Shown here: positions 446-6,845 of the stretch, in pieces
Position numbering within the stretch: the first letter of the stretch is position 1
Layout of the letters: the number at the start of each line of letters is the position of its first letter
Source of the DNA: a virus
Virus genome (UHGV): UHGV-0274194
Strand: one strand, 5' to 3'
Length of the DNA stretch: 6,845 nt
Program-made: the position numbers and the translations under genes
The notes under the pieces: model-generated
What the model was told of the DNA's origin: nothing
Databases searched by the model: none
Seen by the model: only the letters and a program-made list of their open reading frames with translations

Positions 446-798
446 AGTGGCAACCTCCATTGAGTAGCGGTTATTGCCACCACCGGAGTTCCTACGCTCA
501 TGGGTGGTGACCCGAACGGGGGTAGGAATACCGGCCTCAATGAATACCGGCCAGCCCGAAGGCTGCCCCGCCCGGATCACCATTATCTGACAGGGGCTAA
601 GGTGTAAACACCACAGCCCGAAAAATGGGTGTGCCTGAGCAACGACGTAAAAAAAGACGCATGGCGCGTCCGGTGTCGCCATTGAGTAACTCGGGTTCCT
701 ACGCCCGGCTGCCGATTTTGCGACAGCGGGAAAACTATACCTGGAAACGGCGAAAAGAAGCAAGCCAGAAAAAGGGGCTGTTTGCTGAACGGTCATCA

Positions 799-1065
799 TC
801 ATGCGTCATAGCCCCGGTTACGTTCGGCAATGCGATCCGCCATCCATGCAGTGATTTCAGACTGCGCCCACGCCACATTTTTTCCGCCGAGGGAGATTTG
901 TTTCGGGAAGGCTTCCCGGCTGATGAGGTCGTAAATGGTCGAGCGGGACAGGCCGCACAGATGCATCACTTCGGGCAGACGGATAAAGCGCTCGTGAACG
1001 GTATCAGAAACCGGCATCAGAGGCGCGGCAGGGGCAGAAGACGGGGAAGAAAAAGCAGTGTGCAT
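799..1065 (-). CDS. alpA: AlpA-family phage transcriptional regulator (HTH, Vis/excisionase-like)
   Basis: The 88-aa ORF core ([48 protein letters not shown]) matches the AlpA/MerR-like prophage regulator pattern from memory. ATG 1065 has a GAGGT SD; an alternative start at ATG 1017 would give 72 aa. Confidence 0.8.
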
Positions 1066-1533: not shown

Positions 1534-1605
1534 ACGGCAATGAATCGTGTTGTTGTGTCCGGCGCGGCAGAATCTCCTCAGATTGAAACGAAGAGGAGAC
1601 CCGAC

Positions 1606-2343
1606 ATGACTCATACCGCTGTTATTCCCGACTACCTTAAACCCGCAATCGAACGGCTTGAGACGGCCAGAGAGGAACATCTCATTAATGCCCGACACAT
1701 GGATGAAACCACGGCGGCCATCAGCCAGGTGAAAGCACAAAAAAAGGAACTGGAGCAGGAAAACGGCAATGATTCCGGCGCATGGCGCGCCGCCTTTCGT
1801 GCCGGTGGTGCTGTCATTACCGATGATCTGAAACAACGCCATCTGGCGCGCGTGGCACGGCGGGAACTGGCGCAGGAATGTGACAGCATGAACGAGGTAC
1901 TATCTTTTGAGTTGGACAGACTCAAAGGAGCCTGTGACCGCACGGCCAGAGCATACCGTCAGGCACATCACGGCGTCCTCAGTCAGTATGCAGAGCATGA
2001 ACTTGATGCATCCCTGCGTGAAAGCTGCGGTGCCCTCATCAGAGCAATGAAACTCAACATACTGGTTCTGAATAATCCACTTGCTAATACGACCGGGCAT
2101 CAGGGATATATCGAACCGGAAAAAGTTGTAATGCAGCAGGTGAAAGCATGGCTTGAACAGGCCGTAAAGGGCTGCAATATCCGTCTGACCGATGAACCGG
2201 TGCTGTTTAAAACAGGGCTGTCGGCTTCCACACTGCCGCATATGGAACATGACGTTGCGACCACGCCCGGTCAGCGAAAAGTCTGGCAGGAAAAAATGTG
2301 GGAACGTGAAGCTGACCTGAAAGCACGGGGGTTATTGTCATGA
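1606..2343 (+). CDS. sid: Sid, capsid size determination (external scaffold) protein
   Basis: 245-aa ORF with an AGGAG SD 8 nt upstream of ATG 1606. Position immediately upstream of, and coupled to, the Ogr/Delta gene, plus a length close to P4 Sid (about 244 aa). The ORF-track start at 1540 lacks an SD. Confidence 0.8.
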   Translation: MTHTAVIPDYLKPAIERLETAREEHLINARHMDETTAAISQVKAQKKELEQENGNDSGAWRAAFRAGGAVITDDLKQRHLARVARRELAQECDSMNEVLSFELDRLKGACDRTARAYRQAHHGVLSQYAEHELDASLRESCGALIRAMKLNILVLNNPLANTTGHQGYIEPEKVVMQQVKAWLEQAVKGCNIRLTDEPVLFKTGLSASTLPHMEHDVATTPGQRKVWQEKMWEREADLKARGLLS

Positions 2344-2585
2344 TGCGCTGCCCTTTCTGCCGCACAGCGGCACACGTTCGCACCAGCCGCTATATGTCTG
2401 ACAGCGTCAAAGAGAGTTACCTACAGTGCCAGAATGTGCACTGCTCGGCGACATTCAAAACGCATGAGTCCATCTTTGAAGTGATACGTTCGCCGGTCGT
2501 CGATGAGAAACCCGCGCCGGTGCCGACAGTCCCCGTGGCACCCCGTCGGGTAAAAGGCTGCTACAGCTCGCCGTTCCGCCATTAA
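2340..2585 (+). CDS. delta: Ogr/Delta-family zinc-finger late transcriptional activator (single-domain, 81 aa)
   Basis: Cys4 motif C4-x2-C7-x22-C30-x4-C35 (CPFC...CQNVHC) exactly fits the Ogr/Delta pattern. The start overlaps the sid stop (ATGA). Confidence 0.85.
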   Translation: MMRCPFCRTAAHVRTSRYMSDSVKESYLQCQNVHCSATFKTHESIFEVIRSPVVDEKPAPVPTVPVAPRRVKGCYSSPFRH

Positions 2586-2601
2586 TCAGGAGAGACAACC
2601 C

Positions 2602-3168
2602 GTGACCACTCTGACCTTACAGCAGGCCTATGACGCCTGTCAGACGAACAAAACCGCGTGGCTGAACCGTAAAACCGAACTGGCCGCCGCAATGCAGGAA
2701 TATCAGGAATTATTGCTGGATGACAATGCATCAGGCTCCCGCAGATTACAGACGCTGCGTGACCTGATTGACGTAAAAAAATGGGAAGTGAATCAGGCCG
2801 CCGGTCGCTACATCTTCTCGCATGAGGAGGTGCAGCGCATCAGCATCCGTAACCGGCTGCATGATTTTATGCAGCAGAACGGCGCAGAGTTGACCGCCGC
2901 ACTGGCACCGGAGCTGATGGGGATTAAAAACCAGCCCGCGATGATAAAGAATCGCGCGCTTGACCGTTCAGTTTCTTACCTGAGAGAAGCTCTTTCCGTC
3001 TGGCTGACCGTTGAAAATGAAATTAATTATTCTGCACAGGATAAAGATATTTTAACGGCCATCGGATACAGGCCTGACGCGCCTTCGCGGGATGATAATC
3101 GTGAAAAATTCACCCCTGCACAGAACATGATTTACACCCGTCGACGTGCCGAACTGGCCGCGCAGTAG
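2602..3168 (+). CDS. psu: Psu, polarity suppression protein (Rho antagonist / capsid decoration)
   Basis: 188-aa ORF with a GTG start preceded by AGGAGA. Length and position after delta match P4 Psu (about 190 aa), and the sequence looks Psu-like from memory. Confidence 0.85.
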   Translation: MTTLTLQQAYDACQTNKTAWLNRKTELAAAMQEYQELLLDDNASGSRRLQTLRDLIDVKKWEVNQAAGRYIFSHEEVQRISIRNRLHDFMQQNGAELTAALAPELMGIKNQPAMIKNRALDRSVSYLREALSVWLTVENEINYSAQDKDILTAIGYRPDAPSRDDNREKFTPAQNMIYTRRRAELAAQ

Positions 3169-3214
3169 CCTGTCAAAAAATCCCCGTAAATCCCGCTATT
3201 TTTAACGAAATAAG

Positions 3215-3241
3215 CCATGCATCCATAAGGTGCATGGTTTT
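3215..3241 (+). terminator. Probable intrinsic terminator of the sid-delta-psu operon
   Basis: 7-bp perfect stem CCATGCA / TGCATGG with a 9-nt loop, followed by TTTT, 47 bp after the psu stop. Confidence 0.5.
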
Positions 3242-3573
3242 GCATGCGTTTTCTCGCTCCGGCATGACAGACCAGCGCCAGTCGTGGCGCGGCCTGAGAC
3301 CACCTTTGCACCTGCATTAAAAGCGGCCCATTAAGCGGGCAGGCGTGGCGGGGAGAGCATTGCGCGCTGGCCTTCTATCTAATAACTTTGGGTTAAAGTA
3401 AGTCACAAGGTCAATGAAAGCTTTGTGAGATACAGATAAGCTATAATTGCTGCGATTGTGAATTAATCAATCGGGATTAGCACCATTTTCTTGTGTAACA
3501 TAAAAATTTCGGTAAACTCATTCTAAAAACTCGTGAAAAAATAATTATAACTCTATTCTTAGGAGGGTGTATT

Positions 3574-4212
3574 GTGTTGAATCCTGATGATTTGGATGAG
3601 GGTGTTTATCCAGATTGCTACTGGAGTTATATAGGGCAAAAGGATTATTTGAAGCCTAACACATACTTACAAGATGCAATTGATGATTTGAATTCAGGAA
3701 GTGAACGCCGAAATATGAATAATGCAGTGCGAAATGCAAAATCGGCATTACATATGAGAGTGGATATTCTTTGTCGAGCTTTTTGTGGCCGCGAATATTT
3801 CCAAAGGAATCTAAGGAACTTTCCAAAAAAGATGGATTTCCTAGAGGGAATTGGAATAGTTAGACCTAGAATAATTGATAAAATAAATAAAATAAGAAAT
3901 GAAATTGAGCACGAGTATCGAGATGCAACTCTTGAGGAAGCAGAGGATTTCATAGATATAGTTTTATTGTTTATGGAAGCAACTAGATATTTAAATTCAA
4001 GGTTTCCATGTGAAGTTGACTTCCATGGATTGGCAGTTTCTGATGAGGTTTATTTAAGGAGAGTAGTATGCAATTGGGAAGGTGGAGAATTACTTTTTTA
4101 CTATTCAAAGCAAGAGTCACGCCGGCTTGATAACGTGCAAACCTACTCAATAAAAGTGGGTGATTATAGATACGCTCGGTGGGTAAAATTCATTCTAGAT
4201 CATTGCGATTGA
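3574..4212 (+). CDS. Cargo protein, 212 aa, putative HEPN-domain RNase (HepT-like RNxxxHxY motif); function unverified
   Basis: GTG start with a strong SD (AGGAGGG, 6-nt spacing). Motif I-R108-N-E-I-E-H113-E-Y115 equals Rx4HxY in a predicted helical context. About 30% GC, far below the flanking core. A perfect TATAAT at 3442-3447 upstream has no good -35. Confidence 0.6.
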   Translation: MLNPDDLDEGVYPDCYWSYIGQKDYLKPNTYLQDAIDDLNSGSERRNMNNAVRNAKSALHMRVDILCRAFCGREYFQRNLRNFPKKMDFLEGIGIVRPRIIDKINKIRNEIEHEYRDATLEEAEDFIDIVLLFMEATRYLNSRFPCEVDFHGLAVSDEVYLRRVVCNWEGGELLFYYSKQESRRLDNVQTYSIKVGDYRYARWVKFILDHCD

Positions 4213-4249
4213 TATACTATTTGTCCTAACTCACTAAAATAAGTATTTT

Positions 4250-4276
4250 AGACCGAGCTAGGCGTAGCCTCGGTCT
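4250..4276. terminator. Hairpin between the convergent cargo genes (candidate bidirectional terminator)
   Basis: 8-bp perfect stem AGACCGAG / CTCGGTCT with an 11-nt loop, sited between the stop of the plus-strand gene (4212) and the stop of the minus-strand gene (4285). The flanking U-tracts are weak. Confidence 0.45.
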
Positions 4277-4284
4277 AAGTGTTA

Positions 4285-5310
4285 TCAATTTGCCAATGCA
4301 GCAACTAATCTTGCTAATTCATTGAAATTACTACTGAATTCTTTTCTGTTTTCTTTCATCGTATCCAGTATTACTCCATTTTGCTCTATTTGTGCATCTG
4401 AGAGGGCGAATACCGGCGTGCTATGTTTTTGAGATTGAGCAATTAGTGAGTTAAAGTCAGAAATATTCGCCAAATTAAAGGGCTCTTTTGAGGGACAGGC
4501 ATTTTCAAAATCAGTAACCGAAATTGACATATTGATAGGATTTAAAGCTGGTATTAATGTATTAGTGACCTCATCTTTGATAATATCAATCCATCTTTGA
4601 AATGATTTTACTGGTAAATTATTTCTTGGACGATACTTCTGAGATATAAATCCGATGAATTTCGGCGGATCAATAGGGAATGGATATAATATTCCACTAT
4701 CTCTAAAGTTATTTATCTCGCTGTTCCATCTAGGAAGAACTTTTGCGAGTGACTTTATTGCCTGAGCACAGAAAAAATCTGGTGATGTAGGAACTATAAA
4801 ATAGTCACTGCACATTAAGAGACATTCATTTAATGCACCAACGCTGGGGCTCATGTCAATAAGGACATAATCAAATTCATGTTTGCGCGCAGTCTCACGC
4901 AAAAAAGCTCCGATGCTGCCGGGGATATTTCTAATTGCGGGAATAGCAGCGCTGGTTGTCAGCGCAACTCCAATCTGTGTTTCAATTTCTGATAAATAGA
5001 TGCTACCACACAATAAACTTAAATTTGGATTTGTTGTGACTAATGGGTCGGATGGTATAACTTTTCCTAAAGAACCATCTACAACAGGTTTGATGCAACT
5101 ATAAATATCACAGTTTGGATTGTTTTTATAGATTTCATCAAAGTCATCAGTGGTCGAATAGCCCAAAGCTAAGGCTGTCAAATTACATTGTGGATCAGCA
5201 TCAACTATTAAAACTTTATAGCCAAGATTAGCTAGCATCCACCCCATGTTAAAAGTCGTGGTTGTCTTACTAACACCACCTTTATGATTAAATAAAGATA
5301 TTATTTTCAT
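4285..5310 (-). CDS. ParA/MinD-like P-loop ATPase (deviant Walker A), 341 aa, with a long C-terminal extension
   Basis: N-terminus FNHKGGVSKTT is a deviant Walker A (KGGxxK[ST]); A' motif VLIVDADPQ; Walker B FDYVLIDMSP. AAGGA SD 7 nt upstream of the ATG. About 36% GC. Confidence 0.8.
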   Translation of the reverse strand: MKIISLFNHKGGVSKTTTTFNMGWMLANLGYKVLIVDADPQCNLTALALGYSTTDDFDEIYKNNPNCDIYSCIKPVVDGSLGKVIPSDPLVTTNPNLSLLCGSIYLSEIETQIGVALTTSAAIPAIRNIPGSIGAFLRETARKHEFDYVLIDMSPSVGALNECLLMCSDYFIVPTSPDFFCAQAIKSLAKVLPRWNSEINNFRDSGILYPFPIDPPKFIGFISQKYRPRNNLPVKSFQRWIDIIKDEVTNTLIPALNPINMSISVTDFENACPSKEPFNLANISDFNSLIAQSQKHSTPVFALSDAQIEQNGVILDTMKENRKEFSSNFNELARLVAALAN

Positions 5311-5332
5311 TCGAAATCCTTAATAGAAATTA

Positions 5333-6499
5333 TTACTTTAAAAGATAGTTGCTATACCACTGAAGCATTTCCCTTCTTCTTTCAAGGTATTGAGCATGAT
5401 TATATGTTCCTCGAATACTATTCTTATCAACATGAGCAAGTTGCAACTCAATCCATGCACTATCAAACCCTTGTTCATGCAATATTGTCGACATTGTATG
5501 TCTGAAACCGTGACCTGTAGCACGACCTTTATAACCCAGTAGTTCAATTACTTGCGACACACTCTCCTTAGATATTGGTTTGTTACGGTTGTTTCGCCCA
5601 ATAAAAATGTAAGGATAGTGTCTTGTAATAGGTTTTAGTTGGTTAAAAAGATCAACGACTTGTGTTGATAGAGGGATAATATGGGGTCTGCGCATTTTCA
5701 TTCGTTCTGCGGGGATTTCCCATAAACCTCTCTCAAGGTCAACCTCATCCCATGCTGCAAAGCGCATCTCTTGAGTTCTCACACCGGTGAGCATAACTAT
5801 CTTTGTTGCATTTTTCGTTATGATGCTACCGGTATACGCTTCGAGATCCTGAATAAAATGAGGCAATTCTTCGGCAGATAGAAATGGATGATGTTTTTGT
5901 TTAGGAACGGCCAGAGCGATGGCTAAATCAGGCGCAGGATTGTATTCAGCGCGGCCAGTTATGATTGCGTAGCGATAAACCTCACCGCACCTCTGACGCA
6001 CCTTACGTGTTTTCTCTAGTGCCCCACGCTTCTCTATTCGTCGCAATACTTCAAGCAGTTCTAACGGTTTGATTTCACTGATAGGGCGTTTACCAATGAA
6101 CGGGAACACATCTTGCTCAAATGTCTTAATGATTTCTTCGCGATAGGCCACTGTCCAGCGGTCAGCTTTGTTAGTGTACCATTCTCGACATATGGTTTCG
6201 AATGAGTTCTCTGTTGAGAGTTGCTGTGCCAGTTTTTGGGCTTTACGTTCTCCCACTGGGTCTATGCCGTTTGCTACCTGCTTACGAGCGGTATCGCGTT
6301 TCTCACGTGCTTCTGCGAGGCTCACAAGGTTGTAGCTGCCAAATGACATTAGCCGTGCTTTACCGGCAAAACGAAAGCGGAAGCGCCAGCCCTTTGAGCC
6401 GTCTGGATTGATGAGTAATGACAGGCCTTGTCCATCGTTCAGTGTGTAGGGTTTGTTTTGGGGCTTTGCTCGTTTAATTTGTATATCTGTTAGTGGCAT
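5333..6499 (-). CDS. int: P4-type tyrosine site-specific integrase (selC-targeting family)
   Basis: 388 aa. The N-terminal arm-binding region ([24 protein letters not shown]) is typical of P4-like integrases, and catalytic-core motifs are present (R in GVRTQEMR, HxxR in GHGFRHT, LAHV, Y in RGTYNHAQY). It is adjacent to and co-oriented with the tRNA 3' end. Confidence 0.9.
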   Translation of the reverse strand: MPLTDIQIKRAKPQNKPYTLNDGQGLSLLINPDGSKGWRFRFRFAGKARLMSFGSYNLVSLAEAREKRDTARKQVANGIDPVGERKAQKLAQQLSTENSFETICREWYTNKADRWTVAYREEIIKTFEQDVFPFIGKRPISEIKPLELLEVLRRIEKRGALEKTRKVRQRCGEVYRYAIITGRAEYNPAPDLAIALAVPKQKHHPFLSAEELPHFIQDLEAYTGSIITKNATKIVMLTGVRTQEMRFAAWDEVDLERGLWEIPAERMKMRRPHIIPLSTQVVDLFNQLKPITRHYPYIFIGRNNRNKPISKESVSQVIELLGYKGRATGHGFRHTMSTILHEQGFDSAWIELQLAHVDKNSIRGTYNHAQYLERRREMLQWYSNYLLK

Positions 6500-6660: not shown

Positions 6661-6728
6661 TGGCGGAAGATCACAGGAGTCGAACCTGCCCGGGACCGCT
6701 GGCGGCCCCAACTGGATTTGAAGTCCAG
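6661..6728 (-). tRNA. selC: Truncated tRNA-Sec (selC): the 3' 68 nt only (anticodon arm with UCA, long variable arm, T arm, 3' acceptor strand with GCCA); the 5' acceptor strand and D arm are missing
   Basis: The reverse complement CTGGACTTCAAATCCAGTTGGGGCCGCCAGCGGTCCCGGGCAGGTTCGACTCCTGTGATCTTCCGCCA matches the 3' portion of E. coli selC as recalled. The TCA anticodon and long extra arm are visible. The match stops abruptly at 6728. Confidence 0.8.
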
Positions 6729-6845
6729 AACGATGGACAAGGCCTGTCATTACTCATCAATCCAGACGGCTCAAAGGGCTGGCGCTTCCGCTTTCGTTTT
6801 GCCGGTAAAGCACGGCTAATGTCATTTGGCAGCTACAACCTTGTG
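6729..6845 (+). repeat. Perfect inverted duplicate of int codons 21-59 (partner arm 6323..6439), fused to the truncated selC and running off the window; possibly the 5'-truncated start of a second, oppositely oriented integrase
   Basis: Manual base-by-base reverse-complement comparison of 6323-6439 with 6729-6845 gives 117/117 identity. It translates on the plus strand as [39 protein letters not shown], with no in-frame start codon upstream. Confidence 0.9.

Follow-up and report, generated by a model that had tools for sequence, protein, structure and literature searches.

A HEPN protein and a ParA/Soj-class ATPase as separable candidate anti-phage cargo in the psu-int interval of a P4-like satellite

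Satellites related to phage P4 have an anti-phage hotspot between the psu and int genes (PMC9122126), and the cargo analysed here shared this position and context. It was located in the virus genome UHGV-0274194, of which a stretch of 6,845 nucleotides was studied as a whole (hereafter, the window). Two convergent open reading frames (ORFs) with 72 nucleotides between them occupied the cargo interval: ORF-A, encoding a HEPN protein, and ORF-B, encoding a ParA/Soj-class ATPase (Table 1). The exact cargo (WP_087897310 and WP_032254743 from NZ_CP010200) was already present in the hotspot table of Rousset et al. 2022, where this accession pair appeared five times in the supplement and was assigned to no system; the main text of that paper contained no mention of ParA and reported no test of the cargo (PMC9122126). 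A 2026 preprint on the unknown genes of the P4 hotspot described other systems and reported that 6 of 8 randomly chosen loci protected against phage. Cargo that lacks annotation is common in such hotspots. Two described types of systems resembled our locus. The first was a dyad of a ParA/Soj ATPase and a MAE_18760-type HEPN protein, which was predicted to be a toxin-antitoxin pair with the ATPase as the antitoxin (Anantharaman et al. 2013, PMC3710099). The second was represented by HepS from the Gifsy-1 prophage and by Tha, which are solo HEPN abortive-infection ribonucleases (RNases) triggered by phage tail proteins. HepS has 218 residues, an Rx4H motif near residue 105 and no fixed partner gene, and its N- and C-terminal strands form a beta-sheet with the trigger (PMC13043305).

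Our preferred interpretation, to which we assigned a probability of roughly one half, was that the cargo comprised two separable modules that most likely acted independently. The separability of ORF-A and ParA was shown across genomes by comparison of gene content. Namely, 5 of the 9 ORF-A lineages had ORF-A homologs with intact catalytic residues and no ParA. In a Yersinia P4-like satellite, the ORF-A homolog was located beside a tandem HEPN_Swt1/HepT protein. In two P4-like lineages, the ParA slot was occupied by an operon of int, a DUF262 gene and a HEPN_MAE_28990 gene, and the DUF262 protein matched NsnA (E = 2e-56) and PD-T4-2_A (E = 1e-35) in PADLOC. One more homolog was located after an AbiU gene and another was convergent with a PIN_12 gene. 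A tblastn search for ParA found none in the Yersinia, AbiU and PIN_12 loci. The ParA gene, in turn, was found without ORF-A in Citrobacter (138 index blocks) and Enterobacter, at 80-82% identity. Moreover, no HEPN neighbour could be recognised for the majority of ParA genes in the window's own clade, and many genes of this clade adjoined housekeeping genes. Since each gene was found without the other, the comparative data favoured two modules. The initial annotation, made from the window alone, had left open whether the pair was one module or two and had suggested examining whether the genes travel together across psu-int intervals. The answer was mixed, as they were together in four lineages and apart in others.

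Several of the loci with only one of the two genes had further features. The Yersinia protein located between the ORF-A homolog and int (L101, 5736-6905) had 389 residues and two Rx4H motifs, with HEPN_Swt1 above the Pfam cutoff, a weaker HepT-like match and weak PADLOC matches to PDC-M34B. The satellites with the DUF262/GmrSD_N and HEPN_MAE_28990 operon (L105, 4630-6404; L107, 4647-6407) adjoined smpB, and the operon was convergent on the ORF-A homolog. The solo ParA gene of Citrobacter and Enterobacter (L095-L098, L109-L111) adjoined yicJ / selC and had beside it a convergent ORF of 63-77 residues resembling ribbon-helix-helix proteins, as well as a SymE toxin gene. A P4-like satellite was inserted beside this solo ParA gene in some of the strains. 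We considered the 63-residue Citrobacter ORF as a possible remnant of ORF-A and rejected it because of its ribbon-helix-helix appearance and the lack of a tblastn match.

A number of observations weighed against the independence of the two genes. ORF-A and ParA occurred together in 4 of the 9 ORF-A lineages (E. coli, Edwardsiella, Serratia marcescens and an Enterobacteriaceae metagenome-assembled genome), with the convergent layout kept. The Serratia marcescens copy, with the order int-ParA-ORF-A, was located in a non-P4 island adjoining colicin genes. HEPN coupling was also counted in 80 genomic ParA loci and in 80 sampled viral loci. In 29 of the genomic loci, a HEPN gene of about 200 codons was located directly 3' of ParA on the same strand with an overlap of 4-17 nucleotides, and its product had an RRNKIAHE motif and matched Pfam HEPN_RiboL-PSP (E = 6e-14). 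A partner of this type also followed ParA in 10 of the 80 phage-borne loci. Because the ParA subfamily was repeatedly coupled to HEPN, a HEPN neighbour was unlikely to be a pure coincidence. In addition, we found no experimental work on the cargo and no phenotype for either gene in the literature. As to the remaining joint lineages, the Edwardsiella P4-like satellite had the order int-ParA-ORF-A with a convergent ORF-A at a different chromosomal site, and the metagenome-assembled genome had a clear ParA with a convergent ORF-A and just a short integrase-like fragment upstream. Between E. coli and Serratia, identity was 87% for int (the window integrase against that of the Serratia island), 87% for ParA and 65% for ORF-A.

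These observations would be expected if the cargo was one two-gene module in which ORF-B restrained or activated the ORF-A HEPN RNase. We considered this explanation credible, although less probable than independent action. It would make the locus a variant of the 2013 dyad (toxin-antitoxin or abortive infection) with another HEPN family and a convergent gene order. Such a module is consistent with the retention of the pair in four lineages on two types of elements, with the overlapping RiboL-PSP-type partners and with a partner of 311-320 residues ending in RNxAIH that was found in another ParA clade. It is also in line with the proposal of the ATPase as an antitoxin in the 2013 paper, and with the RX4HXY motif of ORF-A, which includes Y115 as in the MNT-regulated HEPN toxins that were its best structural matches. 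Furthermore, supplementary file 6 of Rousset et al. 2022 (row 110) lists a cargo of 'ParA/AAA_31' and 'RelA_SpoT' with 29 occurrences in P2 hotspots (PMC9122126). The ParA of this cargo was a cousin of ORF-B (27% identity, E = 4e-27), and the alignment reached the C-terminal region. This suggested, at the level of sequence, that RelA_SpoT-domain (alarmone-synthetase-like) proteins can be partners of ATPases from the extended ParA class. On the other hand, the five lineages with ORF-A and no ParA, and the nearest ParA relatives without ORF-A, argued against an obligate pair, as did the scarcity of HEPN neighbours in the window's own ParA clade. The two genes were convergent with a hairpin between them rather than joined in an overlapping operon, ORF-A was outside the canonical partner family, and Y115 varied in the wider ORF-A family. 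Among other neighbours of ParA, the partners at L031 and L035 were HEPN-like by motif only, and an hhalign comparison of an Aeromonas protein of 181 residues and of the neighbours at L016, L019, L028, L033 and L055 with two HEPN profiles gave no support.

The comparison with the 2013 dyad thus had two sides. ORF-B belonged to the same ParA subfamily, with 41-47% full-length identity to members of the dyad clade, and it adjoined a catalytically intact HEPN gene in a mobile-element and defence setting. However, ORF-A was not a member of the MAE_18760 / RiboL-PSP family: its hhalign probability against the canonical dyad partner family was 11%, and the alignment covered the catalytic motif only. 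Unlike the canonical arrangement, which is an ATPase-first same-strand operon overlapping by 4-17 nucleotides, ORF-A and ORF-B were convergent, and their co-occurrence was inconsistent. We found no experimental work in the literature on ParA-HEPN dyads, RiboL-PSP, MAE_18760 or ParA-like accessory genes of prophages. The suggestion that the cargo is a candidate for an undescribed or rare module, or for two single-gene modules, was supported: neither protein had a valid match in PADLOC 2.0, as expected for genes outside the named defence systems. Two facts were new to that suggestion, namely the listing of the cargo in 2022 and the prediction of a dyad of ParA/Soj and HEPN in 2013. Accordingly, the locus was already known to exist, and if its ParA proves to be defensive, it would count either as a new variant or as a new component.

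ORF-A was a HEPN protein by both fold and motif, as had been guessed from the window alone. It had the four-helix up-and-down HEPN fold at about residues 27-137, with the Rx4-6H-type motif R108-N-E-I-E-H113. This domain was accompanied by a beta-sheet formed by a strand at residues 14-19 and strands at residues 143-194, followed by a C-terminal helix. R108, N109, E112 and H113 did not vary among 22 close and 62 diverse relatives, which bore out the choice of R108 and H113 as mutation targets in the initial annotation. HEPN toxins that are regulated by modification (MNT-regulated) typically have the RX4HXY form of the motif; in ORF-A, Y115 was invariant in the close family and not in the wider family. 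Conservation was unevenly distributed along the protein. In the close family, it was 82% in the helical core (27-137) versus 51-55% in the N-terminal strand and the C-terminal beta-domain, and in the wide family it was 41% versus 13-17%. A Foldseek search of the PDB found no solved structure matching the beta-domain, and no full-length or C-domain match.

Annotation resources had little to say about this protein. Pfam gave only a sub-threshold match to HEPN_RiboL-PSP (PF18735; 17.9 bits versus a cutoff of 28.4), and PADLOC, NCBIfam and PHROGs gave no match. None of the 62 sampled relatives reached any Pfam threshold, the best value being E = 1.8e-4 for HEPN_RiboL-PSP. A scan of viral contigs with the close ORF-A family gave no matches. 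By contrast, exhaustive searching with a profile yielded 1,099 cluster representatives (at 50% identity) with E <= 1e-3, including 507 with E <= 1e-10; most of them had 210-260 residues and many aligned over nearly the whole length. This overturned the small family of 25 clusters that had been obtained by a word-index search. Thus, ORF-A represented a new family of a known kind, which was large and was missed by current annotation resources.

The layout of ORF-A was comparable to that of HepS, but no homology between the two proteins was found when it was tested. It also differed from the HEPN toxins of the HEPN-MNT type VII toxin-antitoxin systems (SO_3166/SO_3165 and relatives). No MNT nucleotidyltransferase was adjacent to it among the window ORFs searched with Pfam, it had an extra beta-domain of about 70 residues, and the tyrosine was not invariant in the wider family. 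Under independent action, we suggest that ORF-A would be a stand-alone HEPN ribonuclease that rests in an inactive state. Its fast-evolving beta-sheet may recognise a phage product as the trigger, and this recognition would turn on the R108/H113 active site. The activated protein would then cleave RNA, probably tRNA or another RNA of translation, and the cleavage would abort the infection. This scheme was modelled by analogy on the logic that experiments have demonstrated for HepS and Tha, to which ORF-A is unrelated. ORF-A was a candidate abortive-infection RNase of a new solo type, the sensor domain of which diversifies. Its family comprised at least 1,099 clusters (at 50% identity), and members of it were found repeatedly in hotspots of satellites and in defence islands.

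ORF-B was a ParA/Soj-class deviant Walker A ATPase from a distinct and strongly conserved subfamily of about 340 residues, in agreement with its initial description as ParA-like. It matched AAA_31 (E = 1e-31) and CbiA (E = 1e-14) in Pfam. An alignment of 31 sequences showed no variation in the deviant Walker A motif (K10-GGVS-K15-TT) or at D37/D39 and D152; the lysine that had been singled out for mutation, K15, belonged to this Walker A motif (KGGVSKT). At the C-terminus, about 140 residues formed a conserved extension. The structure model had a predicted local distance difference test (pLDDT) value of 84.5. The best solved match of ORF-B was the Corynebacterium diphtheriae protein DIP2308 (3pg5; E = 5e-20 by sequence, template-modelling score 0.55-0.69 by fold), followed by Soj, ParA and McdA (Foldseek E = 1e-9 to 1e-11). 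The fold alignment with DIP2308 passed beyond the ATPase core and appeared to share part of the C-terminal extension. However, the identity was only 20-24% and DIP2308 is itself uncharacterised, so it provided no mechanistic lead for ORF-B. The sole PADLOC match of ORF-B, PDC-M28B, was rejected since it spanned just a 36-residue stretch around the Walker A motif.

Members of this subfamily were very broadly distributed. Full-length relatives with 60-75% identity were found in Pseudomonas, Aeromonas, Shewanella, Burkholderia and cyanobacteria, and a scan with one genome per species recovered 571 relatives over nearly all bacterial phyla. In many phyla, ParA was a single insert adjoining housekeeping genes. 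On IMG/VR viral contigs, 176 relatives were found. Upstream of ParA and on the same strand, a gene for a CI/LexA-type repressor or a repressor-like protein with only a helix-turn-helix was present in 31 of the 80 sampled viral loci. The P22-like phages ST160 and SE1 had the gene order c2, DUF3024 gene, ParA, and the place of ParA downstream of c2 was the position that rexAB has in lambda. Further ParA genes were found in a P. syringae prophage of the P2/HP1-like kind and, at the accessory end, in a Pf1 prophage. Only 23 of 72,556 plasmid records had a member of the subfamily, and the copy on a Pantoea plasmid was inside a transposon-flanked cargo island, adjoining an Abi_2 gene. These phage, plasmid-cargo and repressor contexts suggested that ParA is accessory cargo with probable expression in the lysogen, rather than a partition gene.

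Two further neighbours of ParA were noted. A DUF3024 gene recurred between a CI-type repressor gene and ParA in P22-like phages and prophages related to them, namely in ST160 (L102, 3515-5068) and in L156, L168, L170 and L081, and its product may be the partner of ParA in this lineage. In Aeromonas (L003-L006, 5443-5988), the 181-residue protein mentioned above was encoded 12 nucleotides upstream of ParA on the same strand. It had no Pfam match and showed a faint similarity to HEPN pEK499_p136 (E = 0.09) over its REKYSH motif. This gene and ParA were inserted together between the formate dehydrogenase and kup genes.

The P4 genome is able to replicate as a plasmid, and ORF-B could in principle be an ATPase that maintains or partitions the satellite or island once it is excised as a plasmid, with ORF-A as unrelated cargo. 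The plasmid replication of P4 would fit such a role, as would the fold class of ORF-B, the PHROGs label of its family ('ParA-like partition protein') and its location directly downstream of int in three lineages. ORF-B indeed shared the deviant Walker A fold and motifs of type I ParABS ATPases (Soj/ParA, SopA, ParF, McdA). However, this alternative had been raised with the first description of the cargo, and when we checked it, neither a ParB or adaptor gene (annotation and ORF list) nor centromere-like iterated repeats were found in the window. Moreover, unlike type I ParABS ATPases, the subfamily had a distinct C-terminal extension and was nearly absent from plasmids, in comparison to its many matches on viral contigs. 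Its plasmid copy was part of a cargo island beside an Abi gene, single inserts were found beside housekeeping genes in many phyla, and integrating P22-like phages had it near the repressor. We therefore regarded a partition function as very unlikely.

It was scarcely probable, in our estimation, that ORF-B was an orphan antitoxin-like counter-defence gene that protects the satellite or prophage from ParA-HEPN systems of the host and is not defensive itself. Solo ParA copies were common on phages, and the family has been proposed as the antitoxin half of a dyad, in line with this explanation. However, the placement of ParA by lysogenic repressors suggested that it is expressed in the lysogen and not in the course of a lytic attack, and the gene was stably retained in Citrobacter and Enterobacter chromosomes and strongly conserved across phyla. 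Under the preferred interpretation of two independent modules, ORF-B would instead be a ParA/Soj-like ATP-dependent switch expressed downstream of int. It may be an exclusion or defence factor, or a regulator of such a factor, rather than a partition ATPase. For the cargo as a whole, anti-phage activity was a candidate function suggested by its context.

A more general and rather speculative extension, which we considered unlikely, was that the 340-residue ParA subfamily is a very widespread immune switch of phages and satellites that has so far not been recognised. In such a switch, an ATP-dependent ParA dimer would sense the infection and control interchangeable toxic effectors. These might include RiboL-PSP HEPN proteins, other HEPN proteins, RelA_SpoT-domain proteins in the cousin family, and ORF-A in trans, while in many prophages the ATPase would act solo from the repressor operon. 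The subfamily occupied places that in temperate phages belong to exclusion genes, and a whole clade of it was HEPN-coupled. Its breadth and contexts make it a good target for experiments. We found no literature report of a defence role for a ParA-class ATPase. If the extension is true, ParA-class ATPases would form a new class of defence components and the 2013 dyad would obtain its first function; any demonstrated defence role of ParA would add a component type and test a 13-year-old prediction. Independently of its function, the locus can be regarded as a natural experiment in hotspot modularity, where the gene on the psu side was constant and the module on the int side was swapped between ParA, a PD-T4-2-like operon and a tandem-HEPN gene.

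The ORF-A leader had a TATAAT hexamer (3443-3448) and an AGGAGG ribosome-binding site (3561-3566), and a consensus scan called no full promoter there. The presence of a hairpin between the convergent genes, noticed at the outset, was supported by folding: the whole 72-nucleotide spacer folded at -20 kcal/mol (z = -2.87 versus shuffles). A simple pattern scan did not call this hairpin as an intrinsic terminator because no T-run follows it, and its terminator role was thus deduced from folding alone. According to this folding model, the hairpin is probably a bidirectional transcription stop. No terminator was found between int and ORF-B in the short gap that separates them, so ORF-B was probably co-transcribed with int and translated from its own AAGGA site, judging from the nucleotide sequence. 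A matching int-then-ParA order with a gap of 2 nucleotides was present in Serratia. Rfam found no RNA families within the cargo.

Table 1. Features of the window with their positions and supporting evidence
Feature	Position	Strand	Evidence or description
P4 C4 antisense immunity RNA	500-587	-	Rfam, 81 bits
isrK	650-727	-	Rfam, 71 bits
c4 a1/b1 target	688-740	-	Rfam
AlpA	799-1065	-	Pfam
Ogr/Delta	2340-2585	+	Pfam
psu, left hotspot flank	2602-3168	+	Pfam Psu, E = 1.6e-88
ORF-A leader, AT-rich start of the cargo	3371-3573	+	Similarity stops near 3370; sequence read directly
ORF-A	3574-4212	+	212 residues; GTG start, AGGAGG 7 nucleotides upstream
Hairpin, 33 nucleotides, TTAGACCGAGCTA-GGCG-TAGCCTCGGTCTAA	4247-4279	none	Folding of the spacer
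ORF-B	4285-5310	-	341 residues
int-ParA spacer, 22 nucleotides	5311-5332	-	AAGGA ribosome-binding site; sequence read directly
P4-type tyrosine integrase (int), right hotspot flank	5333-6499	-	Pfam Arm-DNA-bind_3, Phage_int_M, Phage_integrase
tRNA-Sec, integration site	6665-6757	-	ARAGORN, Rfam, RefSeq annotation

The element in the window was a P4-like phage satellite, as had been proposed, with Pfam matches for psu, a P4-type integrase, Ogr/Delta and AlpA. E. coli M10 had a nearly identical copy of it (99.6-100% over the compared parts) at tRNA-Sec, adjoining yicJ. The cargo itself was present in 4 of 5,426 complete E. coli genomes. Its location between psu and int was as initially described, and the related tRNA-Sec satellites had unrelated genes in the psu-int interval, which therefore was a variable hotspot. 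The reported AT-richness was also evident, since the guanine-cytosine (GC) content was 35.5% over 3371-5332, and likewise over 3380-5332, versus 53.5% for sid-delta-psu (1540-3168) and 44.1% for int; single 60-nucleotide lines inside 3380-5332 ranged from 21.7% to 51.7%. The left edge of the cargo was sharp: megablast similarity to other P4-like satellites ended at about 3370, and the GC fraction dropped from about 0.53-0.55 over 3169-3400 to 0.33 over 3401-3600. The right edge was gradual because int itself had a low GC content.

Several minor features were observed in the rest of the satellite. The long ORFs listed across 500-740, where Rfam placed the immunity RNA, isrK and the c4 target, were probably spurious. 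The Ogr/Delta protein of the window had 81 residues, and it was annotated with 166 residues (501 nucleotides) in two related tRNA-Sec satellites (L093, L094); the delta gene appears to exist in single-length and double-length forms within this lineage. In E. coli M10 (L001, 2881-4768), the reverse transcriptase of a retron St85 and the effector of this retron were annotated just beyond the alpha primase gene, which would give this satellite a second flanking site for defence cargo. Finally, tandem repeats with a 10-11-nucleotide unit, AGGTGAACAGT, were found as three copies at 1334-1365 and two copies at 1421-1440. They were located in an AT-rich stretch separating alpA from the sid-like gene and may form an array that serves regulation or binding in the satellite.

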